Assembly (NCBI GenBank): GCA_965237415.1
Contig: CBDEFM010000002.1
Location: 992,001 to 1,056,000, forward strand
DNA from: Alphaproteobacteria bacterium
GTDB lineage: Bacteria; Pseudomonadota; Alphaproteobacteria; UBA828
Length of the DNA: 64,000 nt
Direction: 5' to 3'
The notes beneath the pieces were generated by a model that saw nothing but the letters and a program-made list of their open reading frames with translations, was not told the DNA's origin and made no database searches. Shown one piece after another: positions 1-50,633 of the stretch. Numbering within the stretch: the stretch's first letter is position 1; the number at the start of each line of letters is the position of its first letter. Position numbers and translations under genes: made by a program.

Positions 1-1
1 C

Positions 2-457
2 GAGCATTACGCTTACGGTGCCGAAGCAGTGGGCCGGGCAAGCGTCTGCTCGGTTCCCCGTGCCCGCATGCGAGAGCTCTCTCGGCAATCGCCGGCTTTA
101 CATCAAGACTTGCTCCTGGCCCTCGATCGGGAGATTGCCGCAGCGCAAGAGCGGTTGTTGTGGCTCGGGCGCAAGACGGCGCGGGAGCGGCTCGCGTGCT
201 TTCTGCTGGAATGCGCCGATCGCACGGGTGAGCCGGGAGAGGACGGCACGCAAACCGTTCCGCTACCGATGAGCCAGCTCGAAATCGGCGACTATCTTGG
301 CCTCGCTTCGGAGACGGTGAGCCGAGCCCTCGCCTCGCTCGCTCGCGACGGCGCCATCGATGTCTTGCGGCCCTTTGCCGGGGTCGTCATCCGCGAGCGA
401 CGGCGCCTCGAAGCCACGACAGACGAAGGCGCTCACCTGCCCCGCGCCTATTCGTAG
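2..457 (+). CDS. Crp/Fnr (FixK/FnrN-like) transcriptional regulator, 5'-truncated by the window edge
   Basis: Frame is open from position 2. C-terminal Crp HTH signature 'ARERLACFLLE...PLPMSQLEIGDYLGLASETVSRAL'. Confidence 0.88.
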   Translation, partial: EHYAYGAEAVGRASVCSVPRARMRELSRQSPALHQDLLLALDREIAAAQERLLWLGRKTARERLACFLLECADRTGEPGEDGTQTVPLPMSQLEIGDYLGLASETVSRALASLARDGAIDVLRPFAGVVIRERRRLEATTDEGAHLPRAYS

Positions 458-514
458 CTTGGGCGTCCCAGCAGCTCGCTCGGGCCGCGCCCCGCCCAGT
501 GGTATTCTCCGCCG

Positions 515-1465: not shown

Positions 1466-1492
1466 ATTGTTAAACACGTATGAGAATAATCG

Positions 1493-2461
1493 ATGACGTG
1501 GGCGCTCGGCCGTGAGGGTACGCACGAAGTGGTCTCCGAGACCGATCGTCATGGCAAACCGCTGCGAACCCTCATCTGCATGGAAACGGGGCTGGTACGC
1601 AACGACCCCGTACCCAGCGATGAAGAGTTGGCGCGGTTCTACGCCGACGACTATCGCATTGCCTACAAGGGTGCCGCGAAACCGCGTCGCCGCCAGGCTG
1701 TGCGCAATTTTCGGCGTGTGGCAACGTATTTGCGCATGTTTCGGGACGTGCTGGATCCCGCGACGCACGTGCTGGATGTGGGGGCAGGCTCGGGTGAGTT
1801 CGCTTATCTGATGACGCGGCTCGGCAAGACTGTGAAAGGAATTGAACCGAATTCTCGTTACGCCGCGTATTGTCGTGAGGCGCTCGGGTTAGATGTCCAA
1901 ACGGCCCATCTGTCGCCTGATCTTTTTGCTCCAAGTCAATTCGATCTGATTCGCCTGAATCACGTGTTGGAGCATTTGAACGATCCAATAAGGTATCTCG
2001 GTCAGATCGCTTGCTGGCTCACGCCAGGAGGCCTGCTTTATATTGAAGTTCCGAACATTGAAGCGTATTGCCGCGAAAAGTCACGCGGCCGCATGTTCCA
2101 CTATGCACACATCTTCAATTTCAATCCGTGGACCCTGCGCACGTGCGCCGGCCTAGCTGGCCTGACCGAAGCACCGGAAACCGCTCAGCGAACTTCGGGC
2201 ACCACAGGCGCATTCTTCAAACGCGATGCCTCGGCTGCTCAGTCGATCACGACCGAGAACCCACAAAACGCACAACATGTGCAGGCAATGATCGGGGCAC
2301 ACTACGCAGGCGCGTTCAGTCAGGGCCGCACGGGGAAGCCATTCGTCAAATTCGCCAGGCGGTTCGAGGAGACGCTGACGGGGCTTGCCCTAGGTTCGCC
2401 CGCCGCCATCGGCGAGAGCGTGGCGCGCAGCCTTCGTTCGGAGACGGACGGCGCAAGATAG
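1493..2461 (+). CDS. Class I SAM-dependent methyltransferase
   Basis: Motif I 'VLDVGAGSG'; 'FDLIRLNHVLEHL' and 'LTPGGLLYIEVPN'. Confidence 0.88.
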   Translation: MTWALGREGTHEVVSETDRHGKPLRTLICMETGLVRNDPVPSDEELARFYADDYRIAYKGAAKPRRRQAVRNFRRVATYLRMFRDVLDPATHVLDVGAGSGEFAYLMTRLGKTVKGIEPNSRYAAYCREALGLDVQTAHLSPDLFAPSQFDLIRLNHVLEHLNDPIRYLGQIACWLTPGGLLYIEVPNIEAYCREKSRGRMFHYAHIFNFNPWTLRTCAGLAGLTEAPETAQRTSGTTGAFFKRDASAAQSITTENPQNAQHVQAMIGAHYAGAFSQGRTGKPFVKFARRFEETLTGLALGSPAAIGESVARSLRSETDGAR

Positions 2462-2476
2462 GGGGCGTGTCGGCCG

Positions 2477-2902
2477 TCAGCCGTCGCGGTGGGTGCGCTC
2501 GTGTCGCTCGTGGCGCTCCTGCGCCTCGACGCTGAGGGTCGCGATGGGGCGGGCCTCGAGACGGCGGATGCTGATCGGCTCGGCAGTTTCCTCGCAGTAG
2601 CCGTAGGACCCGACCTCAATCCGCTGCAGCGCCGCCTCGATCTTCGAGATGAGCTTGCGGGCGCGGTCCCGCGTGCGAAGCTGGACCGAGCGCTCCGCTT
2701 CGACGGCAGCGCGATCCCCCAGGTCCGCCTCGTGCCCGGTATCGAGCCTGAGCTTCTCCAGGGTCGCGTCCGTCTCGTCGAGGATGTCCTGCCGCCACAT
2801 TTCCAGCTTGCGCCGGAAATACTCATGCATCCGCGACGACATGAATTCTTCTCTGCTCGTTGGCCTGTACTTGGCCGGGAGCTCTACTCGCTTCTGCGCC
2901 AC
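2477..2902 (-). CDS. dksA: RNA polymerase-binding protein DksA (alphaproteobacterial, single-Cys type)
   Basis: Coiled-coil tip 'DLGDRA', 'RTRDRARKLISKIEAALQRI', 'YGYCEETAEPISIRRLEARPIATLSVEAQERHER'. GTG start at 2902 chosen because it lies downstream of the predicted promoter. Confidence 0.93.
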   Translation of the reverse strand: MAQKRVELPAKYRPTSREEFMSSRMHEYFRRKLEMWRQDILDETDATLEKLRLDTGHEADLGDRAAVEAERSVQLRTRDRARKLISKIEAALQRIEVGSYGYCEETAEPISIRRLEARPIATLSVEAQERHERHERTHRDG

Positions 2903-2936
2903 TGCCCTGCCGGATCCCACCTCGAAATGGGCGCGG

Positions 2937-2965
2937 AGTATAAAAATGCACTGGCGCCTCGGCAA
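2937..2965 (-). promoter_or_regulatory. Putative sigma70 promoter of dksA
   Basis: Minus strand reads TTGCCG-N17-TATACT, about 35 nt upstream of the GTG start. Confidence 0.55.
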
Positions 2966-3164
2966 GCCATTCCGGCACATCGGCTGCACCAGGCCGAAGA
3001 CGTCCGCATGGTGTCAGTAATCTCGCTATTTCAATGCACTAGAATAATTCTACCGGATGGAGTCACGCGCCGCCGCACCCTGAAATAGTCGACGGAGCGT
3101 TGTGCGGCTATCATGCAGGACCGCAGGCGGGACGCCGGGGCGTCCGATTAGAGAGAGAAAGACG

Positions 3165-3365
3165 ATGGTCGAGGGCCTCGCGCCAGGCGATTGGGTCAGG
3201 AACCCGCTGGCGCCGGAATGGGGCCTCGGGCAGGTGCAGTCCGTCATCGGCGACCGCGTTACCGCCAATTTCGAGAACGCGGGCAAACGCCTCATAAACG
3301 CCGCCGTGGTCAGCCTGACTCGGGTGAAGCCGCCTGCGCCGCCGTCGGAGATGTGGCCCGAGTGA
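3165..3365 (+). CDS. DUF3553-family small protein
   Basis: 'PGDWVRNPLAPEWGLGQVQSVIGDRVTANFENAGKRLIN' matches the family as I recall it. GA-rich RBS before the ATG at 3165. Confidence 0.8.
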   Translation: MVEGLAPGDWVRNPLAPEWGLGQVQSVIGDRVTANFENAGKRLINAAVVSLTRVKPPAPPSEMWPE

Positions 3366-3509
3366 ACCCGCCGCCGACTGGCGTAGCCGCTCGTCGAATC
3401 CGACATTCAAACTAGGTCTCGACCGTCGACCGGCTAGGTGTTACGCATCGGAGCCCATTGATCGCTTTGTTCGCCGATTTGGGCGAATCGGCATCGTCGG
3501 AGACCGCAG

Positions 3510-5210
3510 GTGGCTTTTTCGGGCGGAAATCAGAAACCCAGACACCCCGGTAGCGGCCGGCGCAAGGCGCGCTATACCGAAAAGGGCCGGCAAGTCGATC
3601 CCGCGGCGCGGGAGCAAATCCGCGACCTGCTGGGCGACGAGCCCAGGCGCCCCGACCTGCTGATCGAGCATCTGCACAAGATTCAGGACCGCTTCGGCTG
3701 CCTCGCGGCCCGCCATCTCGCGGCGCTCGCGGCAGAGATGCGCCTCGCCATGGCGGAAGTCTATGAGGTCGCGACCTTCTATGCCCACTTCGACGTGGCG
3801 ATGGAAGGCGAGAGCCCGCCGCCGCCGCTGACAGTCAGGGTCTGCGACAGCCTCACGTGCGAATGTTTCGGCGCGCCCGCGCTTTTGGGAGCACTCCCCG
3901 ACGCCCTAGGCGACAACGTTCGGGTGGTGCGGGCGCCCTGCATGGGCCGCTGCGAGGAGGCGCCGGTGGTCGAGGTCGGCCATCGCCACGTGACCCGGGC
4001 GACCGTGAAATCGATCCTCGCCTGCGTCGAGGGACCTGACCATGCACCGGCCATTCCGCCCTACGTGGATTTTGACGCCTATGTCGCGGGCGGAGGCTAC
4101 GAAACTCTCAAGGAGTGCCTGTCGGGCGCGCGGCAAGTCGACGACGTGATCGCCGCTCTGGAAGACAGCGGCCTCAAGGGCAAGGGCGGCGCGGGCTTCC
4201 CGACCGGGCGCAAGTGGCGCTTCGTCCGCGCCGAGACCGGCCCCCGGCTGATGGCCGTCAACGCGGACGAAGGTGAGCCCGGCACGATCAAGGATCGGGT
4301 CTACATGGAGCAGGACCCGCATCGCTTCCTCGAAGGCACGTTGATCGCCGGTTGGGCCGTCGAAGCCGCCGAATGCTACATCTATCTCCGCGACGAGTAT
4401 CCGGGCATCCGCGAGGTGCTGCTGGAGGAGATTGCGAAGCTCGACGCTGCGGGCCTCACGACACAAACCAAGCTTATCCTGCGCAGGGGCGCAGGCGCCT
4501 ACATCTGCGGCGAAGAGTCGGCGATGCTCGAGAGCATCGAGGGCAAGCGGGGCGAGCCCAGGCACAAGCCCCCCTTCCCCTCTCAGGTCGGCCTTTGGGG
4601 CCGGCCCACCCTCATTAACAATGTCGAGACGCTGCACTGGGTGCGCGACATTCTGGAGCGAGGCCCCGCCTGGTTTTCGGACGAAGGGCGCAACGGGCGT
4701 TCGGGCTTTCATAGCTTCTCGGTGTCGGGCCGGGTGAAGGAGCCGGGCGTCAAGCTCGCACCGGCGGGCATCACCATGAACGAGCTGCTGGCGGAATACT
4801 GCGGTGGCATGGCCGACGGGCACACCTTCCGCGCCTACCTGCCGGGCGGCGCCTCCGGCGGCATCCTGCCCGCCTCCATGGCCGACCTCCCGCTCGATTT
4901 CGGCACCCTCGAGTCTCACGGCTGCTTCATCGGCTCGGCCGCGGTCGTGGTGCTCTCGGATCAGGACGATCTCAAGGGTGCGGCACTCAACCTGATGCGA
5001 TTCTTCGAGGACGAGAGCTGCGGGCAATGCACGCCCTGCCGCGTCGGCTGCGAGAAGGCGGCGGTCCTGATGAGCAAGGATCGTTGGGATGCGCCGCTAT
5101 TGCGCGAGCTGAGCACTGCCATGGCCGACGCCTCGATCTGCGGTCTCGGGCAGGCGGCGCCGAACCCGCTGCTGTCCATCCTGCGCTATTTCCCGGAGGA
5201 GCTCGCATGA
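3510..5210 (+). CDS. NAD-dependent formate dehydrogenase beta (diaphorase) subunit, NuoE+NuoF-like fusion
   Basis: NuoE-like 'VYEVATFYAHF' and 'VRVCDSLTC...PCMGRC'. NuoF motifs 'GKGGAGFPTGRKW', 'NADEGEPGT', 'GAGAYICGEE', 'ESCGQCTPCRVG', 'SICGLG'. ATGA overlap with the alpha subunit. Confidence 0.9.
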   Translation: MAFSGGNQKPRHPGSGRRKARYTEKGRQVDPAAREQIRDLLGDEPRRPDLLIEHLHKIQDRFGCLAARHLAALAAEMRLAMAEVYEVATFYAHFDVAMEGESPPPPLTVRVCDSLTCECFGAPALLGALPDALGDNVRVVRAPCMGRCEEAPVVEVGHRHVTRATVKSILACVEGPDHAPAIPPYVDFDAYVAGGGYETLKECLSGARQVDDVIAALEDSGLKGKGGAGFPTGRKWRFVRAETGPRLMAVNADEGEPGTIKDRVYMEQDPHRFLEGTLIAGWAVEAAECYIYLRDEYPGIREVLLEEIAKLDAAGLTTQTKLILRRGAGAYICGEESAMLESIEGKRGEPRHKPPFPSQVGLWGRPTLINNVETLHWVRDILERGPAWFSDEGRNGRSGFHSFSVSGRVKEPGVKLAPAGITMNELLAEYCGGMADGHTFRAYLPGGASGGILPASMADLPLDFGTLESHGCFIGSAAVVVLSDQDDLKGAALNLMRFFEDESCGQCTPCRVGCEKAAVLMSKDRWDAPLLRELSTAMADASICGLGQAAPNPLLSILRYFPEELA

Positions 5211-7963
5211 GCGACGTCATCCGCTTCACCCTCGACGGCCGCGCCGTGACCGCGGAGCCGGACGAGACCATCTGGCAGGTCGCCAAGCGGAACGGGATCG
5301 ATATTCCCCACCTCTGCTACACGCCCGATCCGGGCTACCGGGCGGATGGAAACTGCCGAGCCTGCATGGTGGAAATCGAGGGTGAACGGGTGCTCGCGGC
5401 ATCCTGCATCCGCAAGCCGACCGAGGGAATGGAGGCCAGAGCCTCGGTGGAGCGCGCCGTGCGAGCCCGTGACATGGTGATGGAGCTGCTGATCGCCGAT
5501 CAGCCTCCGCCCGAATCCAGTCACGACCCGTCTTGCGAGCTGTGGGATTGGGCGGCCAGCATGGAGCGCACAACGAGCCGCTTCCCGGCTCGGCAGTCCC
5601 CGGCTCCCGACCTCAGTCACACGGCGATGGCGGTCAACCTCGATGCCTGCATCCATTGCACGCGCTGCGTGCGCGCCTGCCGCGAGGTGCAGGTCAACGA
5701 CGTGATCGGCATGGCAGGCCGCGGGGCGCGCAACAAGATCGTCTTCGACTTCGACGATCCCATGGGCGAGAGCACCTGCGTCGCCTGCGGCGAATGCGTG
5801 CAGGCCTGCCCGACCGGCGCCCTCATGCCGGCCAAGGAGGTCGGCAAGGAGACGCCGGCTAAGAAGGTGGAGAGCGTCTGCCCCTATTGCGGCGTCGGCT
5901 GCCAGCTCACCTTCAACGTCAAGGACAACAAGATCCTCTGGGTCGACGGCAAGGACGGCCCGGCCAATCACGGCAGGCTCTGCGTCAAGGGCCGCTTCGG
6001 CTTCGACTATGTCAATCACCCCCATCGATTGACGACGCCGCTGATCCGCAGGGACGATGCACCCAAGTCGGCCGATATCGACATCGACCCGGCCAGTCCC
6101 CTCACCCACTTCAGGGAAGCCAGTTGGGACGAAGCGCTCGATGCGGCGGCGGCGGGCCTCGGGCAAATCCGCGAGCGGCACGGCGCCGGAGCCCTCGCCG
6201 GTTTCGGCTCGGCCAAGGGCTCGAACGAGGAGGCCTACCTCTTCCAGAAGCTCGTGCGCACAGGCTTCGGCACCAACAATGTCGATCACTGTACGCGGCT
6301 CTGCCACGCCTCGTCGGTGGCGGCGCTGCTCGAATGCATCGGCTCCGGAGCCGTCACGGCGAGCTTCAACCAGGTCGAGCATTCAGACGTTATCATCGTC
6401 ATCGGCGCGCAGCCCACCACGAACCATCCGGTGGCCGCGACCTTCTTCAAGAACGCGGCGAAACGCGGGGCGAAGCTGATCGTCATCGACCCACGCGGCT
6501 CGGCGCTCGCCCGCCACGCGAGCCACTTCCTCCAGTTCAAGCCCGGCACGGACGTGGCGCTCCTCAACGCGCTGATGCACGTCATCGTCGAGGAAGAGCT
6601 TTACGACCGGCAGTATGTCTCGGCCCACACGGAGGGGTTCGAGCAGCTTCGAAGCCATCTCAAGGATTACGCACCGGAGGAGATGGGGCCGGTCTGCGGC
6701 ATCGAGCCCGATGTCCTGCGTGAGGTCGCGCGTCTCTACGGGCGTGCGGAAGCGGCGATCATCTTCTGGGGCATGGGAATTTCCCAGCACATTCACGGCA
6801 CCGACAACGCGCGCTGCCTCATCTCGCTGGCGCTGATCGCCGGCCAGGTGGGCCGCCCGGGCACCGGTCTCCATCCGCTGCGCGGGCAGAACAACGTGCA
6901 AGGCGCTTCCGACGCCGGTCTCATCCCGATGATGTATCCGGACTACCAGTCGGTGACCGATCCCACCCGGCGCGAAAAGTTTTCGGATTTCTGGGGGGCC
7001 GAGCTCGACCCGAACGCGGGCCTCACCGTGGTCGAGGTGATGAACGCCGCCCATGAGGGTGCCATCAAGGGCATGTACATCATGGGCGAAAACCCGGCGA
7101 TGTCGGACCCGAACCTGCGGCATGTGCGCGAAGCGCTCGCTTCGCTCGACCATCTCGTTGTCCAAGAACTCTTCCTCACCGAGACCGCGTGCTACGCCGA
7201 CGTGGTGCTGCCTGCCTCCGCATGGCCCGAGAAGGACGGCACGGTCACCAACACCAACCGCCAGGTCCAGATGGGCCGCACCGCTCTCACGATGCCTGAC
7301 GGCGCCAGGCAGGACTGGTGGATCATTCAGGAGATCGCACGCCGCATCGGGCTCGACTGGACCTATGGCGGCCCGGCCGATGTCTTTGCCGAGATGGCAG
7401 GCTGCATGCCCTCGTTCGACAACATCAGTTGGGAGAGGCTTCGCCGGGAAAGCGCCGTCACCTACCCCTGTAGCGACGAGGACGAGCCCGGCCACGACGT
7501 CATCTTCGAAGACGGCTATCCGACCCCGAGCAAGCGGGGCAAGCTCGTGCCCGCGGGAATCGTGCCGCCCGACGAATCGCCCGATGACGAGTTCCCGATG
7601 GTACTGACGACGGGCCGGATGCTCGAGCATTGGCACACCGGCGCAATGACCCGACGCGCCTCCGTGCTCGACCATCTCGAGCCCGAAGCCGTCGCCCATC
7701 TCGCGCCGGCCGAGCTCGAGCGCATGCAGATCGAGCCGGGCGCGCCGATTAAGGTCGAGACCCGGCGCGGCGCCATCGGGCTTCGTGCCCGCGCCGACGC
7801 CGGAGTTCCCGCAGGCGTCGTCTTCATCCCGTTCTGCTTTGCCGAAGCTGCCAGCAACATGCTGACCAATCCGGCCCTCGATCCCGTCGGCAAGATTCCG
7901 GAATTCAAGTACTGCGCCGCGCGCGTCACCCCGGCGGAAGTCCCTGCCGAAGCGGCTGAGTAG
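5207..7963 (+). CDS. fdhF: Formate dehydrogenase alpha subunit (Mo/W-bis-PGD, Cys ligand)
   Basis: N-terminal 2Fe-2S and 4Fe-4S motifs ('CIHCTRCVRAC', 'CVACGECVQACP', 'CPYCGVGC'). Active-site 'CTRLCHASSV' and 'LRGQNNVQG'; C-terminal 'PEFKYCA'. Confidence 0.93.
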   Translation: MSDVIRFTLDGRAVTAEPDETIWQVAKRNGIDIPHLCYTPDPGYRADGNCRACMVEIEGERVLAASCIRKPTEGMEARASVERAVRARDMVMELLIADQPPPESSHDPSCELWDWAASMERTTSRFPARQSPAPDLSHTAMAVNLDACIHCTRCVRACREVQVNDVIGMAGRGARNKIVFDFDDPMGESTCVACGECVQACPTGALMPAKEVGKETPAKKVESVCPYCGVGCQLTFNVKDNKILWVDGKDGPANHGRLCVKGRFGFDYVNHPHRLTTPLIRRDDAPKSADIDIDPASPLTHFREASWDEALDAAAAGLGQIRERHGAGALAGFGSAKGSNEEAYLFQKLVRTGFGTNNVDHCTRLCHASSVAALLECIGSGAVTASFNQVEHSDVIIVIGAQPTTNHPVAATFFKNAAKRGAKLIVIDPRGSALARHASHFLQFKPGTDVALLNALMHVIVEEELYDRQYVSAHTEGFEQLRSHLKDYAPEEMGPVCGIEPDVLREVARLYGRAEAAIIFWGMGISQHIHGTDNARCLISLALIAGQVGRPGTGLHPLRGQNNVQGASDAGLIPMMYPDYQSVTDPTRREKFSDFWGAELDPNAGLTVVEVMNAAHEGAIKGMYIMGENPAMSDPNLRHVREALASLDHLVVQELFLTETACYADVVLPASAWPEKDGTVTNTNRQVQMGRTALTMPDGARQDWWIIQEIARRIGLDWTYGGPADVFAEMAGCMPSFDNISWERLRRESAVTYPCSDEDEPGHDVIFEDGYPTPSKRGKLVPAGIVPPDESPDDEFPMVLTTGRMLEHWHTGAMTRRASVLDHLEPEAVAHLAPAELERMQIEPGAPIKVETRRGAIGLRARADAGVPAGVVFIPFCFAEAASNMLTNPALDPVGKIPEFKYCAARVTPAEVPAEAAE

Positions 7964-8002
7964 AGCTGGTTGGGGCGGGGCGCACCCGCCGGCGGTGTCA
8001 GG

Positions 8003-8743
8003 CTAAGCGGTGCTGCCGCGGCCGGAGAGCGGCACGACCGTCGTCGAAGCCTCCTCCGAGGCTTCCCCCTCCTCGGGTTCTTCGGTCGCGTCCACCGTGT
8101 CCCCACCCTCTCCCCCGAGAGGCAACTGAGCGGGGACCTCGCCCGCCCCTTCAGCCTGCGGACCGGCGCTTTCCAGGAGACCGGCAGCCTCCAGTTCGTC
8201 GACGCCGGGGAGGTCGTCGAGACTCTCCAGGCCAAAATGCTCCATGAACGCCGGCGTGGTGACCCACGTCACGGGCCGGCCCGGCGTGCGCCGGCGCCCC
8301 TTCGGCGCGATCCAGCCCGCCTCCAGCAACAGGTCGAGCGTGCCCCGCCCCAGGTGGACGCCGCGAATCTCCTCAACCTCCGCCCGCGTCACCGGCTGGT
8401 GGTAGGCGATGATGGCGAGCGTCTCCAGCGCCGCGCGCGAGAGGCGCCGGCGGACGACGCGATGCACGGTCAGGTGCTCCGCCAGATCGGGAGCGGTGCG
8501 AAACGTCCAGCCGCCCGCGACCTTCACCAAGTGGACTCCGCGGTGCTGGTAATGCGCCGCGAGCCTGGCAAGTCCCGCTTCGACATCGGTGCCTTCCGGC
8601 AACTGCGCCGCCAAAGTGGCGGCATCGACGGGCCGGCCCGCGGCGAAGATCACGGCCTCCATAATGCGGGAGGCGCGGGCGGCGCGCTCGTCGTCCTCGG
8701 TGGGTTCCACAGAGGGCGAAGTCTCTAGCGGATCGGTGGTCAT
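8003..8743 (-). CDS. scpB: SMC-Scp complex subunit ScpB
   Basis: 'LSRAALETLAIIAYHQPVTRAEVEEIRGV' and 'PGRPVTWVTTPAFMEHFGLESLDDLP'. Confidence 0.93.
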   Translation of the reverse strand: MTTDPLETSPSVEPTEDDERAARASRIMEAVIFAAGRPVDAATLAAQLPEGTDVEAGLARLAAHYQHRGVHLVKVAGGWTFRTAPDLAEHLTVHRVVRRRLSRAALETLAIIAYHQPVTRAEVEEIRGVHLGRGTLDLLLEAGWIAPKGRRRTPGRPVTWVTTPAFMEHFGLESLDDLPGVDELEAAGLLESAGPQAEGAGEVPAQLPLGGEGGDTVDATEEPEEGEASEEASTTVVPLSGRGSTA

Positions 8744-9561
8744 GGTTCTTCCCGCCTCCGGCGAAGATAGATCGGGCCAAACGGCTCCAATTGGCGAATC
8801 TGCAGGCGGCCCTCGCGCGCGAGCTCCAGGGCCGCGGCCAGTGTGCTCGCCACGCCGGAGCGGGCCATCGCGTCGCTTTCGGCAGCAGTGCCGCGGGGCA
8901 AGAAGCGCGCCAGGGTCTCCCAATCCGGCGTGCTTCCCAGCAACTGCGACATGCGCCGGTACGCATCTTCCATAGCGTGATAGGCGCTGAGCTCGATCAG
9001 CAGGCGTCGGGGTTCGCGTCGGATGCGGTGGGCGGCATAGGCCCGCAGCAGCTCGCGGAGCGTACTTTCGTGAAGCGCCTCCTCGCGCACCGGCAGGCCC
9101 TCGGCCCTGCCGGCGGCGAACACATCCTGGCCGAGTTGCGGGCGGTCCATCAGGGTCGCTGCGGCATCGCGCATCGCTGCCAGTCGCCGCAGCCTGCGGG
9201 CGAGCGCCGCCGCCATCTCGGTGCCGCTCGGCTCCTCGGCGTCGGGTTCCTCGTCGGGCAAGAGCAGCCGCGACTTGAGGTAGGCGAGCCACGCCGCCAT
9301 GACCAGATAGCCGGCCGCGAGTTCGATGCGGAGCCGCCGGGCCTGTGTGACATAGGCCAGATACTGCTCGGCCAGCGCCAGTATGGAGATGCGCGCGAGG
9401 TCGACCTTCTGCGTGCGGGCGAGCGTAAGCAGCAGATCGAGCGGACCCTCGAAGCCGTCGAGATTGACGATCAGCTGAGACTCATCCTCGGCTGCACCGG
9501 GACGGGGCGAGGCTGTACCCCGCCGGCCGGCGTCGTCTTCTAGCGGCGTCAGATGGGCCAT
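8740..9561 (-). CDS. scpA: Segregation/condensation protein ScpA
   Basis: 'LDGFEGPLDLLLTLARTQKVDL', 'YLVMAAWLAYLKSRLLLP', 'LELAREG..IRQ..PFGPIYL'. Confidence 0.93.
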   Translation of the reverse strand: MAHLTPLEDDAGRRGTASPRPGAAEDESQLIVNLDGFEGPLDLLLTLARTQKVDLARISILALAEQYLAYVTQARRLRIELAAGYLVMAAWLAYLKSRLLLPDEEPDAEEPSGTEMAAALARRLRRLAAMRDAAATLMDRPQLGQDVFAAGRAEGLPVREEALHESTLRELLRAYAAHRIRREPRRLLIELSAYHAMEDAYRRMSQLLGSTPDWETLARFLPRGTAAESDAMARSGVASTLAAALELAREGRLQIRQLEPFGPIYLRRRREEP

Positions 9562-10253
9562 GACACCAGTGCCTCCACGCCGAACAAATCGACGATCAGT
9601 TCGAAGCCCGCTGCCATCGGCGGCAGCACAATCTCGGCCAACGGGTTGAACGCGGTGCCGAACTCCGCCGCAATCAGCGGCACGACAAAGAATCCGACCA
9701 GCACCGCGATAATACCAAAGCGCTCGAGTCGCGCGAAACGTTCGGCTGAGCGCGGTGGGAGCAGCCCGTGTAACACGCGGCCGCCGTCCAGCGGCGGCAC
9801 CGGCAGCATGTTGAAGATGGCCAGCACCAGATTGATGGCGATGCCGAGGGTGAACGTCGCCCGCCACCACTCCGCGAACACCGGCGGAAAGACGGCCGCC
9901 GCGTGGAGCAGTAGTGCCGAGAGGCAGGCCAGAAGGATGTTCATCCCCGGCCCCGCCAGCGCCACCAGGACCATGCCGCCCCGCGGGTTGCGAAGCCTCG
10001 CCGGGTTGACCGGCACGGGTTTCGCAAAGCCGAATACGAACGGCGCGCCAAGCGCAATCAGGGTCCCGGGCAACAGGACCGTGCCCACCGGATGAACATG
10101 CTTGAGCGGATTGAGGGTAATGCGCCCGAGCCTCGCCGCCGTGTCGTCGCCCAGCTTGAGCGCAGCCCAGCCATGCGCGACCTCGTGCAGCGTGATTGCA
10201 AACAGCACCGGTATCACCCAAACCGATGCGGCGAGGAGCCATGCCTCGATCAC
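9549..10253 (-). CDS. Site-2 protease (peptidase M50) family protein
   Basis: HExxH 'HEVAHG', 'NMLPVPPLDGGR' and several transmembrane segments. Confidence 0.92.
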   Translation of the reverse strand: MIEAWLLAASVWVIPVLFAITLHEVAHGWAALKLGDDTAARLGRITLNPLKHVHPVGTVLLPGTLIALGAPFVFGFAKPVPVNPARLRNPRGGMVLVALAGPGMNILLACLSALLLHAAAVFPPVFAEWWRATFTLGIAINLVLAIFNMLPVPPLDGGRVLHGLLPPRSAERFARLERFGIIAVLVGFFVVPLIAAEFGTAFNPLAEIVLPPMAAGFELIVDLFGVEALVSWPI

Positions 10254-11284
10254 TGCGGCGTCACCTGAGCGAGCAAGGCATCCAACTCGCGGCGGCCATT
10301 GGCTTCGTCGAACGCATCGGGTGCCTGCCGCGCCGCGAGCATGCGGTCGAACCGCTCCCGCGCACGGCCGGCGAGCTTCGGCACTGCCGCCGCGACGTCC
10401 TCCATTTCGTCGCGTATGCCGTTGCAGTGAAGGGTCAAGTCGCAGCCGGCGGCGAGCGCGGCGGATGCGCGCTGGCCGACCGATCCGGTCAACGCTCCCA
10501 TGGACAGATCGTCAGTGATCAACAAGCCGTCGAACCCGATGGCGCCCCGCACCGCCTCTCCGATCACCTTAGGTGAGAGCGTGCCAGGCCGCTCGGGATC
10601 GAGCGCGGCGTAGCAGACATGCGCCGTCAAGCCCACGGGCGCGTCGCGGAGCGCGCGAAACGGCACAAAGTCACGGGCCCGCAACGCCTTGAGCGGCGCG
10701 TCTACTCGGGGTAGCACCGCGTGGCTATCGGCAGTCGCTCGGCCGTGGCCGGGTAGATGCTTTACGGCAGGGACGATTCCGCCGGCGCGCAAACCGTCCG
10801 CGACCGCGCGGCCGAGTCTCGCCACCAATCGCGGGTCGGCGCCGAACGAGCGATCGCCGACGACCTTGCTCGCGCCGGCGTAACGGAGATCCAGCGCCGG
10901 CACGCAGTTGACGGTAAATCCGAGCGCGAGCAGATCCACCGCCACCAGGCGCGCATTGAGCCAGGCAGCGCGAACGCCAGCATCCCCGTCGACTTCTGCC
11001 AACGCGCCGAGCAGCGCCGGCGCCGGCGGAGCGCGCCAGTGGGGAGGGCCGAGCCGGACCACGCGCCCCCCCTCCTGATCGATCAGGACCGGCGCGTCGG
11101 GGCGGCCCACCGCCTCGCGGAAGGCCCCGATCAAAGCCTGAGTTTGTGCCGGGCTCTCGCAGTTGCGCTTGAACAGGATGAAGCCCGCCGGATCGGCGTC
11201 GGCCAAAAAACGGCGTTCGCCATCGTCGAGCGCCTCGCCCGCGCAACCGAGAATCATCGCCCGCGGCGCGACACGCGCCGTCAT
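10250..11284 (-). CDS. nagZ: Beta-N-acetylhexosaminidase (GH3)
   Basis: 'IDQEGGRV', 'KHLPGHG...DSH', 'ITDDLSM'; canonical operon position. Confidence 0.93.
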   Translation of the reverse strand: MTARVAPRAMILGCAGEALDDGERRFLADADPAGFILFKRNCESPAQTQALIGAFREAVGRPDAPVLIDQEGGRVVRLGPPHWRAPPAPALLGALAEVDGDAGVRAAWLNARLVAVDLLALGFTVNCVPALDLRYAGASKVVGDRSFGADPRLVARLGRAVADGLRAGGIVPAVKHLPGHGRATADSHAVLPRVDAPLKALRARDFVPFRALRDAPVGLTAHVCYAALDPERPGTLSPKVIGEAVRGAIGFDGLLITDDLSMGALTGSVGQRASAALAAGCDLTLHCNGIRDEMEDVAAAVPKLAGRARERFDRMLAARQAPDAFDEANGRRELDALLAQVTPQ

Positions 11285-11291
11285 GCCCACC

Positions 11292-12512
11292 TCAATCCCG
11301 CGGCACGAAGCACTCGAGCCCGCGCGTCTTGAGTTGCGTGCAGACCCGCCGCGCCGCACCCGCGTCGCTGAGAGGGCCGGCGCGCAGCCGGTAGGTAATA
11401 CCGCTGTCGCCGCTATCGACCGGCATGATCAGTGGGCTGAGGCCGACGAGCACGTCATTGTGACGGCGGCGCAGCATCTCCCAGTGGCCTTCCAGCGCGC
11501 TCCGGGAGTTGGCGGCGCCGAGCTGGACGTAGCGCCACGTGCGGGAAGAATCCGACTGCACCGGCTCTGGCGCAGCGTCCCGCGCTTTCGAAGCGGCATC
11601 GTCGACCGGCCGCTCGGCCGGCGCGGTCCGCGCGAGGCTAACCGGCTTGTGGACGGGGAGCGGCACCGAGCCTACGTACTCCTGCCGAGCGTACTCCTCC
11701 CGTGCAGGGGCTGAAGATGTCTCAGCCTCTCGCTGCAGAATTTCCTCGACCAGGGCCAGCGTCTCCGGATCCAGCTGCGGTATTTCTTCGACTGTGGTCG
11801 GTGTCTCAGGCTCATGCGGCGGCGCTTCTTCGACCATGGCCGGCTCATCGAGATCCGGCAGAGGCGTTACATCGATCCGAATAGCGGCCAGCGTTCCGGG
11901 TTTCGGTGGATGCGGCCTCACGACCGCCTCAACCATCGGCGCTTCGGGTTCCGTTGCTTGAGGCTCAATTGCCTCTGGTTCTGGTGTCGGCGCCTCCTCG
12001 ATCGGGGCGGCTGCCGGCTCGTCGACGCCGCCTGCGTCCGGTTGCAGCGCGGCGGGGTCTCTCTCTACACCCGATGCTGCGACCGCCAGCTCTTCGGCGC
12101 GGTCGGCTTCAGGTTGCGGTGGACTCATGGGCTCTTCCGGCGGCGGCAGGACCCGCTCGGGCGCTTCCTCGGGGTCGGCCGTCGTCAGCGTCTCGTAAAT
12201 CAACGTGCCCTGGTTTGGAATTTCCATTCCGCCCGGATCAGCGGGACGGACCTTCCATGGCTCGGTCGACGCGGTGATGAGCCGCACCGAGGCCTCGTCG
12301 GGAGCAGGCGGCCCGCTCCCCATGTGCTCGGTCACCGCCCAGGCGCCACCCGAGAGCACCGCGGCGCCGAGAAGTATCCACACAGGAAGCAGCCGGGGGC
12401 GCCCGCTCTCCGCCGCTTCCCCGACGGCAGGCTCTGCTGGTTCCTGCGGCGGCTCCGGGCTCGGCGACTCGGGCGCCGACGGAGTCTCGGGGCCGTCTTC
12501 GCCGCCGCTCAT
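11292..12512 (-). CDS. SPOR-domain cell division protein (FtsN-like)
   Basis: N-terminal transmembrane segment, '[16 protein letters not shown]', P/E-rich linker, C-terminal SPOR domain 'YVQLGA...[23 protein letters not shown]'. Confidence 0.85.
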
Positions 12513-14263
12513 CGCATCTCCTGCACCGGCTCGACTCCGAACAGTGCCAGCCCCTCCGCAATAACGATCTTGACGGCGCTTATCAATGCGAGCCGGGCGC
12601 GTGTCTCCGCCGGCCGCTTGCCATCGACGATGCGAAGCCGCGGGTCGTCCTTGCCCCTGGTCCAGAGCAGATGAAAGGCGCCCGCAAGGTCATGCAAATA
12701 AAAGGCGATCCGGTGCGGCTCGTGGGCGAGCGCCGCGCCGGCCAGCACCCGTGGCCATTGGCAGAGCAGGCGGATCAGGTCGAGCTCGGACGGATCGTCC
12801 AGGCACGTGAGGTCGACGCGGGCGAGAGCGGCAAGCGCAAGCTCGGGCTCGGGCACGATCTCTGCCCCGCGGCGCAGCGCCGAGCAGGCCCTGGCATGGG
12901 CATACTGAACGTAGAAGACAGGATTGTCCCGCGACTGCTCGGTAACCCGGTTGAGATCGAATTCGAGTGGCGCATCGTTGCGGCGGGTCAGCATGATAAA
13001 GCGGACGACGTCGCGCCCGACCTCATCGACAACATCCCGCAAGGTCACGAAGCGCCCGGCCCGCTTCGACATCGCCACCGGCTCGCCGCCGTCGAGCAAC
13101 TTCACCATCTGACATATCTTCACGTCGAGGCTCGCCGAATCGCCGGAAAGCGCTGATACAGCAGCCTTCATCCGCTTGACGTAGCCGCCGTGGTCTGCGC
13201 CCCAGACGTCGATCAGGTCGGTGAAGCCGCGCTCGATCTTGTCGCGGTGATAGGCAATATCGGTGGCGAAGTAGGTCCAGGTGCCGTCCGACTTCCTGAG
13301 CGGCCGGTCCGTATCGTCGCCGAAGACGGTGGCGCGGAAGAGACTCTGTTCGCGCGGCTCCCAATCCTCGTCGCGCTTGCCCTTGGGCGGCTCCGGCACG
13401 CCGCGGTAAATGAGATCGGCGGCCTCCAGTGCGGCGTACGCGTCGTCGACGCGGCCCTCGTCGACCAGCGCGCGCTCCGAGCGAAACAGATCGTGGCTCA
13501 CACCCAGCGCTTCGAGATCGGCTCGCACGAGGTCCATCATGGCGTCGGTGGCGAAGCGGCGGACCTCCGGCAGCCAGACCGATTCGGGCTCCTCCAGCCA
13601 GCGGCGACCGTCACGGGCCGCAAGCGCCTCGCCGACGGGCACCAGATAGTCGCCCGGATAGAGCCCCTCGGGGATGGCACCGATCGTCTCGCCGCACGCC
13701 TCGCGGTAGCGGGCGTGGACCGAGCGGGCCAGCGTATCGACCTGCGCGCCGGCGTCGTTCACATAATATTCGCGCGTCACCGCGAAACCCATATGCGAGA
13801 GCAGGTTGGCGAGGGCATCGCCCACCACCGCGCCCCTGGCGTGCCCGACGTGGAGCGGCCCCGTCGGGTTGGTCGAGACGTATTCGACATTGACCGGCCG
13901 GCCACGGCCGAGGTCTGTGGCGCCGTACCCTGGGCCGGTCTGGAGCAGTTCCGCCAGCCGCGCCCACCAGAACTCGTCCGTGAGCCGGAGGTTGACGAAG
14001 CCGGGGCCGGCCACTTCGACGGCACGAATGTCCGCGCGCCCGTCCAACCGTTCAGCCAGATGCTGGGCGATTTCGCGTGGCTTGCGTCGCGCCTGCTTGG
14101 CCAGGACCAGTGCCGCATTGCACGCCGCATCGCCGTGCTCCGCCTCGCGCGGAGGCTCGACAGAGACAGCCGAGAGATCGAGCCCGCGAGGCAGCAGGCC
14201 AGCCCCGCTCATCGCCTCAATCTCGACCTGAATAACATCTGACAAGTAGCTGAAAACATTCAT
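12509..14263 (-). CDS. argS: Arginine--tRNA ligase
   Basis: HIGH-type '[17 protein letters not shown]', 'WGADHGGY', 'MSKRAG', '[12 protein letters not shown]'. Confidence 0.97.
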
Positions 14264-15471
14264 CTCCACAGCACCGTATCGAAGAGATTGCGATGTTCCT
14301 GGATGGCGAAGCGATCCGTCATTCCAGCAACGTAATCGGCGACGACGCGCGCCGTCGTCACCGTTCGCGCGCCGTCGCACCGGCCCCACCACTCCTCGGG
14401 CAGGCATTGGGGCTCGTCGACGAAAAGCTCGAAGAGCTCGCGCACGGTCCGGCGCGCCTTGCTAGCCATCCGGTTGACCTTGTGATGACGATACATGCGC
14501 TCGTGCAGGAATGCCTTCAAGGCCTCTCCCTGGGCCTGCATGGTCGCCGAGAAAGCGATCAGCGGCGCACCATGCCCGCGCACGGCCTCCGCGTCACTCG
14601 GCCTCGCCTCCTCCAGGCGCTGCCGGCTCGTATCGATCACGTCCTCGACCATGGTTCCGATCATGCGGCGAACGGTCTCGTGAATGAGGCGGCCCTCGTC
14701 GCCACCCGGATGGTCGGCGATTGCGTCATCGAGAATCGCGCCCACGAGAGGGACGTCCCGCACGTCGTCGACGGTGAAGAGGCCGGCGCGCAGCCCGTCA
14801 TCCACGTCGTGGTTGTTGTAGGCGATATCGTCGGCCAGCGCCGCGATCTGGGCCTCTGGGCCGGCATGGGTGTGGAGTTCCAGGTCGTGCCGGGCCGAAT
14901 AAGACTCGATGTCGCCGGGCACGGCATCCGGCGGCCGTGGGCCATTGTGCTTCGCCACCCCTTCCAGGGTCTCCCAGGTCAGGTTCAGGCCGTCGAAGCC
15001 GTTATAGCGGTGCTCCAGGGACGTCAGGATGCGTACGGTCTGGGCGTTATGGTCGAAGCCGCCGTAGGGCGCCATCGCTTGATCGAGCGCCGCCTCCCCG
15101 GCGTGACCGAAAGGCGGGTGCCCAAGATCGTGGGCCAAAGCAAGCGCCTCGGCGAGGTCTTCGTCCACACCGAGGACGCGGCTGATCGAGCGCGCAATCT
15201 GCGCGACCTCCAGGCTGTGGGTCAGCCGGGTGCGGTAGTGATCCCCCTCGTGATAGACGAAGACCTGGGTCTTGTGCTGCAGGCGCCGAAAAGCCGTGCA
15301 GTGGATGATCCGGTCGCGGTCGCGCTGAAAGGCCGTCCGAGTGCGGCTTTCCGGCTCCGGATAGAGGCGCCCGCGGCTCTGCTCGGGGAGTGAAGCATAG
15401 GGCGCCGCGGCGCGCCGCGTCGCCGGCGCATCCTCGATCGCCTCACTGGCGCTCGCGTCGCTCACGGTCAC
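14260..15471 (-). CDS. dgt: Deoxyguanosinetriphosphate triphosphohydrolase (dGTPase, HD family)
   Basis: '[22 protein letters not shown]', '[12 protein letters not shown]', '[14 protein letters not shown]', '[11 protein letters not shown]'. Confidence 0.95.
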
Positions 15472-15980
15472 ATCTCGCCTGCGGGCCCGCGGATTGCGTG
15501 GAGCCGCTTCGTCGGCAGCTGGATCGGTGGCGGCACCGCGTAGAACGTGTGGACTTCTGGCGTCTCCTCCTCGGACTCGGCTGAATCGTTGCCCGGTTCG
15601 GTCGAGCGGATTACCACGTCGTGGCCCGAACGCCGCGTCTCGCGCATGACCGACTGAAGCCGCTGGGCGGCTGCCTGATCCCAGGGCAACGCGTAGAATC
15701 GCGGCGTTCCCTCGACGGAAAGCCAGAGATAGATGGCTTCGTCCTCGCGCAGTGCGGCCGAGAGCACTCGTGCGCCCGCCACATCGTCCAATTCGGGGGA
15801 GAGCATCTTCGGCCGCGAGAGCAGCATGGAATAGCTGAAATAGCCGACCACGACGAGGGCAGCGAGCAAACCCACGGCGGCGGCCTTCCAGAGCGCCCGC
15901 CGCCGGGACCAGACCGCAATACTCGCGAGCGCTGCGCCTACCAGCGCAAGGGCGACATAGAGGTAGGCGAAGCTATCCAC
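15468..15980 (-). CDS. Hypothetical membrane protein (two N-terminal TM helices), third gene of the MotA/ExbB-like module
   Basis: Two hydrophobic helices followed by a soluble part 'EDEAIYLWL...PRFYALPWD'. Overlaps both neighbours. GTG start at 15980 (alternative 15995). Confidence 0.75.
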   Translation of the reverse strand: MDSFAYLYVALALVGAALASIAVWSRRRALWKAAAVGLLAALVVVGYFSYSMLLSRPKMLSPELDDVAGARVLSAALREDEAIYLWLSVEGTPRFYALPWDQAAAQRLQSVMRETRRSGHDVVIRSTEPGNDSAESEEETPEVHTFYAVPPPIQLPTKRLHAIRGPAGEM

Positions 15981-16617
15981 CCGGCCGCACCTCACGGGAG
16001 CGCAGCTGAGACTGGGCGTATTCCCGTATCAGCGAGAGCCTGACGTCGTTGACGCTGCCGTGCACGAGCGCGCCCTTGCCGGTCAACGCGAAGCGAAACA
16101 CGGTCGTCTCGTGGCGCGGATAGCGCAGCTCGACCTCCTTTTCCAGGATCGGCGTCGGCCTGTTCTCGCCCTCGCGCTTGACGCTGACAACCACCTGCAC
16201 CTGTACCGGAACCGGCTGGATCGGATCCTCCAGGCGGTAGGCCTGGACATTGACGATCCATTCGCCAGGCACGATGCCCCGACTGTAGACAATCTCGTAA
16301 TTGATGTCGGTAAGGTCTTGAAACAAGCCGAGATCGTCGCGCAATAGATTGACCACCTCGTTGCCCTTGTTGGGGAAGCCGACCGGCAACCTGTCCGGCG
16401 CCTTGACCCAGAGATCGATATCGGCGTCGCGATCGGCCGCCCACACAAGCTCGATGATCACATTGCCGGGATCGCTGATCCCTTCGGCCTCGCTCTCGGC
16501 TTCGGCACCCGGATTAAGGAACGGCAACAGCATGAGCACCATCGCGACGAAGGCTGCGAGCGCCAACAGAGTGACATCGCGGAAGATCGTGCCGCTGTCG
16601 TCGTCAAACTCGTCCAT
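15973..16617 (-). CDS. Single-pass membrane protein, ExbD/MotB-like topology, with an unusual periplasmic beta domain
   Basis: Asp at the start of the single TM ('IFRDVTLLALAAFVAMVLMLLPF'), then 'IELVW..DADIDLWVKAP...NYEIVY...PGEWIVNV'. No OmpA-like peptidoglycan-binding motif seen. Confidence 0.75.
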   Translation of the reverse strand: MDEFDDDSGTIFRDVTLLALAAFVAMVLMLLPFLNPGAEAESEAEGISDPGNVIIELVWAADRDADIDLWVKAPDRLPVGFPNKGNEVVNLLRDDLGLFQDLTDINYEIVYSRGIVPGEWIVNVQAYRLEDPIQPVPVQVQVVVSVKREGENRPTPILEKEVELRYPRHETTVFRFALTGKGALVHGSVNDVRLSLIREYAQSQLRSREVRPGG

Positions 16618-17197
16618 CGGCCGCGAGGAGCTCGCTGTAGAGGGTGGCGGTGCCGGTCGCCAGCATACGGTAGTTGACGGTGAGCCACAGGCCCAGCACG
16701 GCGCCCTCCAGGGTCGTGTAAAGCGCGACCGACATGCCGCTGATAAGGGTCGAAATCATCGGCTGTACGGCAGCGAGCGTGCCCGCATCCTCCGCCGAAA
16801 CCCCGGAGAGCGCGATGATGAAACCGGTCACGGTGCCGATCAGACCGAGCACGACGAGCGCGGAGGCGATCTGCCGCACCACCGCGATGCGGCTGAAGAG
16901 GCGTGCCTTGAGCGCCTCGGCCATAAACTCCGGGCGAACGGGCGTACGGGTCCAGGCCATCGGGAGGTCTACGGTCCCGTCTGCCTCCAGCCTGTTGAGG
17001 GCAGCGCTTGTCTTGAACAGACGGTATCCGCAGAGCGCGAGGCCCACCGCGAAGACGCCGAAGATGACGAAGACGAGGCCGGTGGGATCCGCCTCTACGA
17101 GCCGGGCAAGCCAGCCCTGTGCGCCCGCGAGCCCGAGCAGGGCTGCGCCCACGATATTGACGATAAGGAACCGGTAGAGGAGCAGGTAGCGGCGCAA
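16604..17197 (-). CDS. MotA/TolQ/ExbB proton-channel family protein
   Basis: Family motifs 'LGLIGTVTGFIIAL' and 'GMSVALYTTLEG'. TTG start preceded by AGGAG with 8-nt spacing. Confidence 0.85.
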   Translation of the reverse strand: MRRYLLLYRFLIVNIVGAALLGLAGAQGWLARLVEADPTGLVFVIFGVFAVGLALCGYRLFKTSAALNRLEADGTVDLPMAWTRTPVRPEFMAEALKARLFSRIAVVRQIASALVVLGLIGTVTGFIIALSGVSAEDAGTLAAVQPMISTLISGMSVALYTTLEGAVLGLWLTVNYRMLATGTATLYSELLAADGRV

Positions 17198-50363: not shown

Positions 50364-50633
50364 CGATCGCCGTTCCCGGTGTTGGATGCGATCCCAGCGC
50401 TGATCCGCGCGCTCTAATCCGCGTTCGGTTTCGATAGTCGCCAAACACGCATCAACCCATCAGCATAGCCCAATCGGCTCACGACCTGGAAGCGCCACCG
50501 GCAGAGGCCGCCCGGAAAACGCTGCACCGACGTTTTGAGTTGATGGCACGGCACGCATCCCCTATTCAGGAACGCAGGGCGACACGCCGAACGGCGGCGC
50601 AAGCCAACGCTCATTACGAGGAGGAATAATTCG

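Follow-up and report, generated by a model that had tools for sequence, protein, structure and literature searches.

The subject of this analysis is a set of three overlapping open reading frames (ORFs), here called genes A, B and C, on the minus strand of an alphaproteobacterial contig (CBDEFM010000002.1, assembly GCA_965237415.1). The analysed stretch, positions 992,001–1,056,000 of this contig, comprises 64,000 nucleotides (nt) and is referred to as the window; positions are counted from its first letter. The surroundings of the genes are those of an ordinary GC-rich (~0.66) alphaproteobacterial chromosome. The three minus-strand ORFs were confirmed within 15468–17197 together with their overlaps, and the short motifs from which an initial annotation had recognised a MotA/ExbB-type ion-motor module were all located in their translations ('LGLIGTVTG' and 'GMSVALYTT' in A; 'FRD', 'DADIDLWVKAP' and 'PGEWIVNV' in B; 'FYAVPPPIQLP' in C). 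The triplet represents a large family of probable MotA-type motors that has yet to be named, whose partner domains are new and which rhizobial phages share. Its features are as follows.

16604..17197, minus strand: gene A, ORF of 197 aa, MotA/TolQ/ExbB-type channel subunit
15973..16617, minus strand: gene B, ORF of 214 aa, subunit with a single transmembrane (TM) helix
15468..15995, minus strand: gene C, 175 aa as longest ORF, two-TM subunit
16832..16834, minus strand: codon of A Thr122 (motif GLIGTV), candidate pore-lining threonine in TM3, codon checked
16712..16714, minus strand: codon of A Thr162 (motif ALYTT), candidate pore-lining threonine in TM4, codon checked
16576..16578, minus strand: codon of B Asp14 ('FRD', where the TM helix begins on the cytoplasmic side), candidate proton-carrying residue, codon checked

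The three genes are translationally coupled. A and B overlap by 14 nt, B and C by 23 nt, and the stop of C overlaps the start of the following gene, dgt, by 4 nt. The longest ORF of C starts at the GTG at 15995, and 11 of 14 close relatives start five codons later (MDSF...). The counterpart of this start in the window is the GTG at 15978–15980, which overlaps the stop codon of B. The true start of C is therefore probably the GTG at 15980, judging from these relatives, with a product of 170 aa and a B/C overlap of 8 nt. An AGGAG motif lies ~10 nt 5' of the TTG start codon of A. The GC content at third codon positions (GC3) was 0.80–0.84 in A, B and C, against 0.37–0.51 at second positions (GC2), the same coding signal as in the other genes of the window. 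The window gene set consisted of 52 ORFs from our own GC3-based gene call, made independently of any annotation.

Protein A passed the Pfam model MotA_ExbB (PF01618) with 37.3 bits against a cutoff of 22.9 (E 2.6e-9, residues 94–185), which identifies it, by sequence, as a MotA/TolQ/ExbB-family protein and bears out its initial description as a channel protein of this kind. Hydropathy indicated four hydrophobic helices and a cytoplasmic loop of only ~40 aa between helices 2 and 3 (about residues 63–103). Thr122 and Thr162 were invariant in all 28 homologues and fell on T145 ('GLFGTV') and T178 of Escherichia coli TolQ in a profile alignment (E 1.3e-3, probability 18%). These TolQ threonines are functional residues, as is generally known and as stated in the sections of PMC12204202 covered here. 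When the 28-homologue profile was searched against PDB, the nearest solved relative was MotA (8gqy, E 4.6e-4), followed by ZorA structures. ZorA models were likewise the top matches in the defence library PADLOC (E 3e-7 to 0.3), over the channel core only, and the NCBIfam model ZorA_2 was matched with E 4.6e-4 and 19.3 bits against a cutoff of 100.

An AlphaFold2 model of protein B (24-row alignment, pLDDT 76.8) comprised a TM helix (residues 8–34), a low-confidence linker of ~14 residues, an eight-strand beta-sandwich (52–178) and a terminal helix (196–209). Asp14, at the start of the helix, was invariant in 24 of 24 homologues and was Asp in 130 of 149 distant representatives (≤50% mutual identity), with 14 gaps and five other residues among the remainder. 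It was placed on Asp23 of E. coli TolR by a short and weak alignment (hhalign, 16 columns, E 0.007, probability 5%). Neither Pfam nor NCBIfam matched B at E≤1, PADLOC and PHROGs likewise assigned it to no family, and a profile search against PDB returned nothing meaningful. In particular, the periplasmic domain matched neither ExbD/TolR (PF02472; Pfam and NCBIfam) nor the OmpA family (Pfam, NCBIfam and PADLOC) at E≤1, and no vWA match was found. The initial annotation had proposed a single-TM protein with an Asp at the start of the helix and a beta-rich soluble part in place of an ExbD or OmpA-like domain, and the model, the alignments and the fold and profile searches agree with it on each of these points.

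The closest PDB folds to the B sandwich (Foldseek) were TerD-family proteins (2qz7, 2qng and 2kxt; E 9e-4 to 0.03, TM-score 0.37–0.52), followed by other calcium-binding or PLAT-like sandwiches, including a calcium-bound DUF4425-type protein. TerD-like phage proteins were likewise recovered from a viral structure library. Among 52 distant B members, 31–47% identical to window B, a single one matched Pfam TerD (PF02342; E 0.13), and nine matched DUF2135 (PF09906) at E≤1, the best of them (P0223) with 22.2 bits against a cutoff of 22. The DUF2135 profile covers 48 positions, a single hairpin corresponding to about residues 105–135 of B. The resemblance to DUF2135 noted in the initial annotation thus held for part of the distant family and, at one member, reached the cutoff, whereas window B itself did not match the profile. 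In Atlas, the nearest named clusters to B carried DUF2135 in 21% of their members (score 0.83), which is a lead only. Across the same 52 sequences, W59, D66, D68, W70, G80, L91, R93, D94, D95, G97, N106, E108 and N123 were invariant, and the acidic cluster among these residues is a probable metal (Ca2+) site.

The family to which B belongs is large. One protein search returned 855 relatives at E≤1e-3, and a search with the Azospirillum protein as query gave 5044 clusters at 90% identity; at the level of 50%-identity clusters, 1838 representatives were found at E≤1e-3 and 1332 at E≤1e-10. Among the source names shown, only 'hypothetical' or 'uncharacterized' occurred. Two entries (P0388 and P0389) that resembled natural A-B and B-C fusions were rejected, as they contained out-of-frame stretches and are frameshift read-throughs of the overlapping genes.

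These features of A and B also invite a reading in which the two proteins act as a gated channel for an ion (H+ or Ca2+) or as a sensor, with the sandwich as a periplasmic Ca2+ sensor that gates the pore of A and with C as a regulator. The acidic residues of the sandwich are near-invariant, its top folds include calcium-binding TerD and the calcium-bound DUF4425-type protein, the short linker would set it directly over the pore, and A lacks a cytoplasmic output domain. The likeness to TerD is weak, however, given the one poor Pfam match noted above, and the Ca2+ site is putative. Moreover, to our knowledge, every studied MotA/ExbB-family member with a partner bearing an Asp in its TM helix works as a motor. 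We therefore consider a channel or sensor quite unlikely.

Protein C was modelled (AlphaFold2, pLDDT 77.1) with two helices (5–29 and 34–59) and a small beta-beta-beta-alpha-beta(-beta) domain at 75–154, whose returning strand (149–154, FYAV) is followed by a ~20-residue Pro-rich tail (FYAxPQPxLPPK). Together with the alignment of 30 homologues, the model matched the initial picture of a two-TM protein with a domain and a Pro-rich tail. The motif LLSRPK, directly after the second helix, was invariant in this alignment, and W29, Y52, L59, P62 and K63 (the last three in this motif), E84, the IYLW stretch, P98, R99, W105 and A110 were conserved. About 115 residues lie beyond TM2, and both helices are without His. 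The loop between the helices is basic (SRRRALWK), which suggests, by the positive-inside rule, that it is cytoplasmic and that the domain is periplasmic. No significant family match was found in Pfam, NCBIfam or PADLOC and no sequence relative in a PDB profile search; a fold search gave weak OB-like matches only (E≥0.025).

Since A is a PF01618 protein, the gene order resembles exbB-exbD-tonB or tolQ-tolR-tolA, and C carries a Pro-rich stretch, the triplet could be a diverged ordinary Ton or Tol system, with A as ExbB/TolQ, B as ExbD/TolR and C as TonB/TolA, energising outer-membrane transport or stability. The likeness to ExbB-ExbD-TonB and TolQ-TolR-TolA extends to the threonines aligned with TolQ, the Asp aligned with TolR on a single-TM partner, and a three-gene operon whose third product is membrane-anchored. 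ExbB and TolQ have three helices, whereas A has four hydrophobic helices, as in MotA. The soluble domain of B is a beta-sandwich in place of the ExbD/TolR fold, and C has two TM helices and neither a TonB/TolA C-terminal domain nor a periplasm-spanning region. In profile searches, B and C matched no ExbD, TonB_C or TolA model at E≤1, and the C profile was aligned to E. coli TolA with a probability of only 1.5% (hhalign), in line with the initial view that the two proteins are not ordinary ExbD/TonB or TolR/TolA. TonB and TolA carry an SHLS motif, according to the part of PMC12204202 covered. C differs from such transducers in its two TM helices without His, its compact domain, its tail of ~20 residues and the lack of a Pfam match. 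Because only these ~20 residues follow the compact domain, C cannot span the periplasm and reach the outer membrane as TonB or TolA do. The gene context differs as well. Among the 52 window ORFs, there was no TonB-dependent receptor, tolB or pal gene, and, as the initial annotation had noted for most of these families, no tonB, tolA, exbD, flagellar or zor gene either. A TonB-dependent receptor gene occurred in one of 12 scanned loci (L044), ~5.5 kb upstream of the triplet and nearer to a solo copy of B. With these tests of membership failed, the triplet can in practice be ruled out as an ordinary Ton or Tol system, a reading that we regard as highly improbable; a TonB-like output role for C is also unlikely, if less remote.

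A scan of 185,579 species genomes recovered at least 582 loci with a relative of B, and the locus counts given here refer to the best 80 of these (numbered with the prefix L). A, B and C were inherited together: the complete A-B-C set was present in 76 of the 80 loci. Of the others, L019 and L051 end at or just past B, and L057 and L076 hold a solo B paralogue. The A gene was split or truncated in some contigs of metagenome-assembled genomes (MAGs; L016, L018, L034 and L056). With gene starts picked by our own heuristic, A and B overlapped in 71 of 77 triplets (median −14 nt) and B and C in 58 of 77 (median −4 nt). When the ORFs of all 80 loci were clustered all against all, only A, B, C and their antisense shadow ORFs recurred in most of them. 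No fourth conserved gene was detected by Pfam among 68 flanking ORFs from 12 diverse loci and 83 nearest-neighbour ORFs; the latter were scanned out of 103, of which 17 were covered by the flank scan and three (two in L001 and one in L073) were omitted. The neighbours were unrelated housekeeping genes that recurred only within lineages, such as NIPSNAP in Geminicoccaceae and malate synthase in MAGs labelled Granulosicoccaceae. The neighbourhood survey proposed in the initial annotation thus showed the triplet to be a conserved unit of its own.

This recurrence also settles whether the three ORFs form one system at all. GC-rich DNA is rich in long spurious ORFs, and 58 ORFs were listed in a 9-kb stretch here, so that chance adjacency or mis-called ORFs might be suspected. 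The strong GC3 coding signal and the hundreds to thousands of homologues of each protein speak against this, and the A-B-C order persisted in the 76 loci down to 29–49% identity and was found again in phages. Chance adjacency is refuted by the recurrence of the order in genome loci, in the ORF clustering and in phages, and we give it practically no weight.

The carriers were labelled Geminicoccaceae, Azospirillaceae, Dongiaceae, Kiloniellales, Hyphomicrobiaceae and Rhodospirillales, and further included low-GC MAGs labelled Pelagibacterales and genomes labelled Granulosicoccaceae or Gammaproteobacteria. The B match of locus L001, on a 6.17-Mb MAG chromosome with the label Alphaproteobacteria, was 100% identical to window B. 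Carriers available in culture are, among others, Azospirillum oleiclasticum (L036), A. brasilense, A. halopraeferens and Skermanella species. The triplet of A. brasilense Sp7 is located on the 1.75-Mb replicon p1, and matches among plasmids were confined to megabase Azospirillum replicons (seven records).

Downstream of the triplet in the window lies the following gene.

14260..15471, minus strand: dGTPase-like gene (dgt) with HD and HD_assoc domains (Pfam), a neighbour in this lineage only and outside the module

The order dgt-argS-SPOR followed the triplet only in the 15 closest of the 80 loci (L001–L014 and L017). On the same strand, 9549–14407 holds genes for argS, a SPOR-domain protein, a GH3 (NagZ-like) enzyme and an M50-like peptidase, a cell-wall and housekeeping cluster retained only in close relatives of the window.

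Several loci showed additional arrangements around the triplet. A solo B paralogue type was found in L044 (5974–9603), L050, L065, L068, L070, L057 and L076, that is, in low-GC (0.30) MAGs labelled Pelagibacterales or Rhodospirillaceae. In five of these genomes (all except L057 and L076), it lay ~3 kb upstream of a full triplet, and in a quick tree the solo copies formed a sister clade to the triplet copies. In L044, TPR and DsbA-like genes come after solo B. Immediately 5' of A, a gene for a reprolysin-like M12 peptidase is present in L044, L050, L065 and L068, the ORF at the same place in L070 having a TPR-like profile match only; a gene with a discoidin (F5/8 type C) domain lies just 3' of C in L044, L050, L065 and L070. 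Other protease genes flank the triplet in L022 and L023 (7363–7884), L071 (7154–8281) and L045 (8429–9469). A retropepsin-like aspartyl protease gene stands directly 3' of the triplet in Kiloniellales MAGs, and DegP-like trypsin-PDZ genes stand 3' of it in MAGs labelled Granulosicoccaceae. The mixed protease classes beside the triplet in unrelated lineages could be chance. In the alphaproteobacterial MAG locus L054 (4202–11689), a triplet, a solo B, A fragments and a second triplet occur with a Mu-type transposase gene (8274–9773) between them, and the module can be duplicated or moved by mobile DNA. HlyD-type and ABC-exporter genes resembling type I secretion, one with a C39 peptidase domain, adjoin the triplet in four loci of two lineages (L020 and L027, ~7170–10870; L022 and L023, ~1–5065). 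This exporter was considered as a conserved partner and rejected, as it was present in only four of the 80 loci.

The triplet is also carried by phages, which is new here and had been missed in the initial annotation. A tblastn search with B against 50,697 phage records matched nine, all of them Rhizobium or Sinorhizobium phages. In the temperate phage 16-3, p040 is B-like, p038 (138 aa, two genes upstream) is A-like (hhalign probability 95%, E 2.7e-8), and p042 (141 aa, two genes downstream) is C-like (97%, E 8e-11). p038 aligned with helices 1–2 and 3–4 of A and lacks the cytoplasmic loop (63–103). RHph_X2_25 has the same set, and its B-like protein (hhalign probability 99.9%) retains 'FRD'. 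With phage proteins as queries, all three genes were found in six records, namely 16-3 (two records), AP-16-3, NV1.1.1, RHph_X2_25 and RHph_TM3_3_14B. A second, more distant group consists of RHph_N3_13, I3_11, N3_19 and the 171-kb RHph_I1_18. The three genes are contiguous in both RHph_N3_13 and RHph_I1_18, with profile E values, respectively, of 5.7e-7 and 0.012 for A, 8e-29 and 3e-23 for B, and 1.2e-5 and 8.4e-7 for C, and their B-like proteins carry an Asp before the TM helix (YLDF and FIDF). An Asp in the place of B Asp14 was present in all four phage homologues inspected. The A-B-C loci of these four phages are as follows.

3187–5048: phage 16-3 (L082)
3233–5514: phage RHph_X2_25 (L083)
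2422–3929: phage RHph_N3_13 (L084)
2543–4016: phage RHph_I1_18 (L085)

In the 16-3 group, tiny ORFs stand between the A-, B- and C-like genes, as does an HNH endonuclease gene in RHph_X2_25. A gene for a periplasmic trypsin-like protease lies ~1–3 kb from the triplet in three of the four loci (16-3, X2_25 and N3_13); in 16-3, the neighbouring protease is p036. In a quick tree of B, used only for family grouping and for the separate placement of phages, every sequence from the 80 genome loci, together with that of the Sp7 replicon of A. brasilense, belonged to one clade, grouped by bacterial family, and the phage sequences fell outside it in two separate places, with many long branches. One C-like cluster in Atlas had 64% viral sequences among its classified members. 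Apart from a single weak match of unknown function, PHROGs assigned neither the three window proteins nor six phage homologues to any family, and a term search of PMC10460002, on phage AP-16-3, gave no p036–p042, MotA or 'transmembrane'.

Among solved structures, the profile of A came nearest to a flagellar stator protein. MotA-MotB and PomA-PomB share with the triplet the four-helix topology, the Asp on the partner and, in MotA 8gqy, the closest structure to A. In contrast to these stators, A has a loop of ~40 aa that is gone altogether in the phage versions, B has no OmpA-like peptidoglycan-binding domain, and the 52 ORFs of the window include no flagellar gene. The short or missing cytoplasmic loop therefore leaves no torque-generating interface. 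With ZorA-ZorB, the triplet shares the sequence matches described above, ZorA models being the top defence-library matches of A and ZorA structures being among its PDB profile matches. Unlike ZorA, A (197 aa) lacks a long tail, and its scores are far under the cutoffs; B and C match no Zorya model in PADLOC, and zorC, zorD and zorE are absent from the 52 window ORFs.

The ZorA matches and the phage copies raise the question of whether the triplet is a Zorya-like phage-exclusion or anti-phage device that, while phage DNA enters the cell, would detect or obstruct what happens at the inner membrane and that temperate phages would carry against rivals. This proposal concerns the role of the triplet and is compatible with a motor mechanism. 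It draws on the best PADLOC match of A (E 3e-7), on the carriage of all three genes by temperate rhizobial phages of the 16-3 group and by two further phage groups, large phages included, on the trypsin-like protease genes ~1–3 kb away in three phage loci, on the proteases of three classes that flank the triplet in L022, L023, L044, L045, L050, L065, L068 and L071, and on the three copies around the Mu-type transposase gene of L054. However, the ZorA matches are limited to the channel core, no PADLOC model matches B or C, A is without the long ZorA-type tail, and no effector gene is conserved beside the triplet. In addition, B groups by bacterial family in the quick tree and the triplet has a fixed housekeeping context in the 15 genomes of the window lineage, a pattern that looks vertical rather than island-like; one of the carriers, moreover, is a phage of 171 kb that brings tRNA genes of its own. 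Taken as the role of the triplet, phage exclusion therefore appears rather unlikely.

Partners other than ExbD have been described elsewhere in this superfamily. In the part of the work covered here, Williams-Jones et al. (2025; PMC12204202) described a TolQ-like gene without adjacent exbD or tolR, whose partner combines an Asp-bearing 'transpore helix' with a periplasmic vWA domain. That system shares with the triplet an Asp-bearing helix fused to a non-ExbD periplasmic domain; as far as the covered part shows, it consists of vWA gene pairs without a C-like protein, whereas the triplet has a TerD/DUF2135-like sandwich and an extra subunit. The structural diversity of non-flagellar 'GIT' relatives is treated in PMC12505986, the covered sections of which do not mention the triplet. 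The literature searched, supplements being outside its scope, held no description of the triplet, of DUF2135 or of 16-3 p038–p042. TerD proteins are soluble and cytoplasmic. The resemblance of B to TerD and to DUF2135 (YfaP) lies in its top folds and in the DUF2135 matches of some distant members, whereas window B matches neither profile at E≤1 and its TM-scores to TerD-family structures are those given above.

Motors of the 5:2 type consist of a ring around a partner dimer, in which the passage of protons at the Asp and the threonines drives relative rotation. On this model, A, B and C would constitute one self-contained inner-membrane machine of the MotAB, ExbBD and TolQR kind, with C as an obligatory third subunit. 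A would build the ring, a pentamer by analogy, with TM3 and TM4 and their residues Thr122 and Thr162 lining the ion path, and B, presumably a dimer, would place its single helix inside. Asp14 would pick up protons and release them between itself and the rings of threonines, so that proton flow would turn A relative to B; the 5:2 stoichiometry, the use of protons and the rotation itself would all follow from the analogy. On its short linker, the B sandwich would sit directly over the ring, and the C domain, after the LLSRPK hinge, at roughly the same height above the membrane. C might ride on the ring past the B sandwich, or might gate the ring; that it is the output subunit, as the initial annotation had it, is a guess. 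Because A is practically without a cytoplasmic domain, B has a short linker and C reaches a similar height, the most likely site of the work is the periplasmic side of the inner membrane, where the B and C domains would act on each other; the cytoplasm and the outer membrane are unlikely sites.

Several observations weigh against this motor model. No experiment, annotation or paper bearing on the function of the triplet was found. The scores of A against ZorA, TolQ, ExbB and PomA models (NCBIfam and PADLOC) are all far under the cutoffs, and the alignments of A and B with TolQ and TolR are short and statistically weak (18% and 5%). The structural matches of B (TM-score 0.37–0.52) and C (E≥0.025) are generic. 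Metal binding is read from the conservation of acidic residues and from the likeness to TerD, and the membrane topology solely from the positive-inside rule and analogy. A prediction of the A+B+C complex (1:1:1, own alignments) gave an ipSAE of 0.00 in two runs without controls and speaks neither for nor against the model. On balance, we lean towards the full statement, that is, a separate family of proton-driven 5:2-type motors in which A, B and C form a machine at the periplasmic face. Among its parts, the pairing of A and B as a motor is likely, and C is fairly probably a stable third subunit. C would dock on the complex, its domain, like that of B, would lie in the periplasm, and B would bind a metal. 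The interpretation offered in the initial annotation is therefore partly supported.

Two further ORFs of the window are recorded for completeness. The ORF at 57432–58001 (189 aa) has a GC3 of 0.48, against 0.75–0.93 for most called ORFs, lacks a Pfam match and sits in the lowest-GC stretch of the window (0.605); its origin may be foreign, or it may not be a true gene. The ORF at 48750–50444 encodes a two-domain CYTH + CHAD protein, in which a triphosphate tunnel enzyme is combined with a domain associated with polyphosphate granules, and is unrelated to the triplet.

The 5:2 ion-driven motors, namely MotAB, ExbBD, TolQR, GldLM and ZorAB, are a small set that carries inner-membrane energy to work elsewhere, and every member that has come to be understood has led to a new field of biology. 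The B family, with its 1838 clusters at 50% and 5044 at 90% identity, is large and yet unnamed, and the partner domains of the triplet are unlike those of every described motor. As to its role, our first guess is the control of the cell envelope against or during phage infection, and our second is envelope homeostasis. A wider picture, possible but doubtful, is that of a new class of motor: a minimal three-subunit rotary machine with its output wholly at the periplasmic face, in which a metal-binding B axle would turn against a ring-borne, OB-like C, and which would be common to proteobacteria and to phages that deploy it early in infection to control the envelope, for example to exclude rivals. 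Genetically tractable carriers are at hand in Azospirillum brasilense Sp7 and in phage 16-3 of Sinorhizobium meliloti. The phage ring subunit, of ~140 aa, suits structural work and the question of what a minimal MotA-type motor requires; in the wider picture above, the phage form, at 138 aa, would be the smallest known MotA-type ring subunit. The carriage of the triplet by phages gives a new clue to how they deal with the envelope of their hosts.

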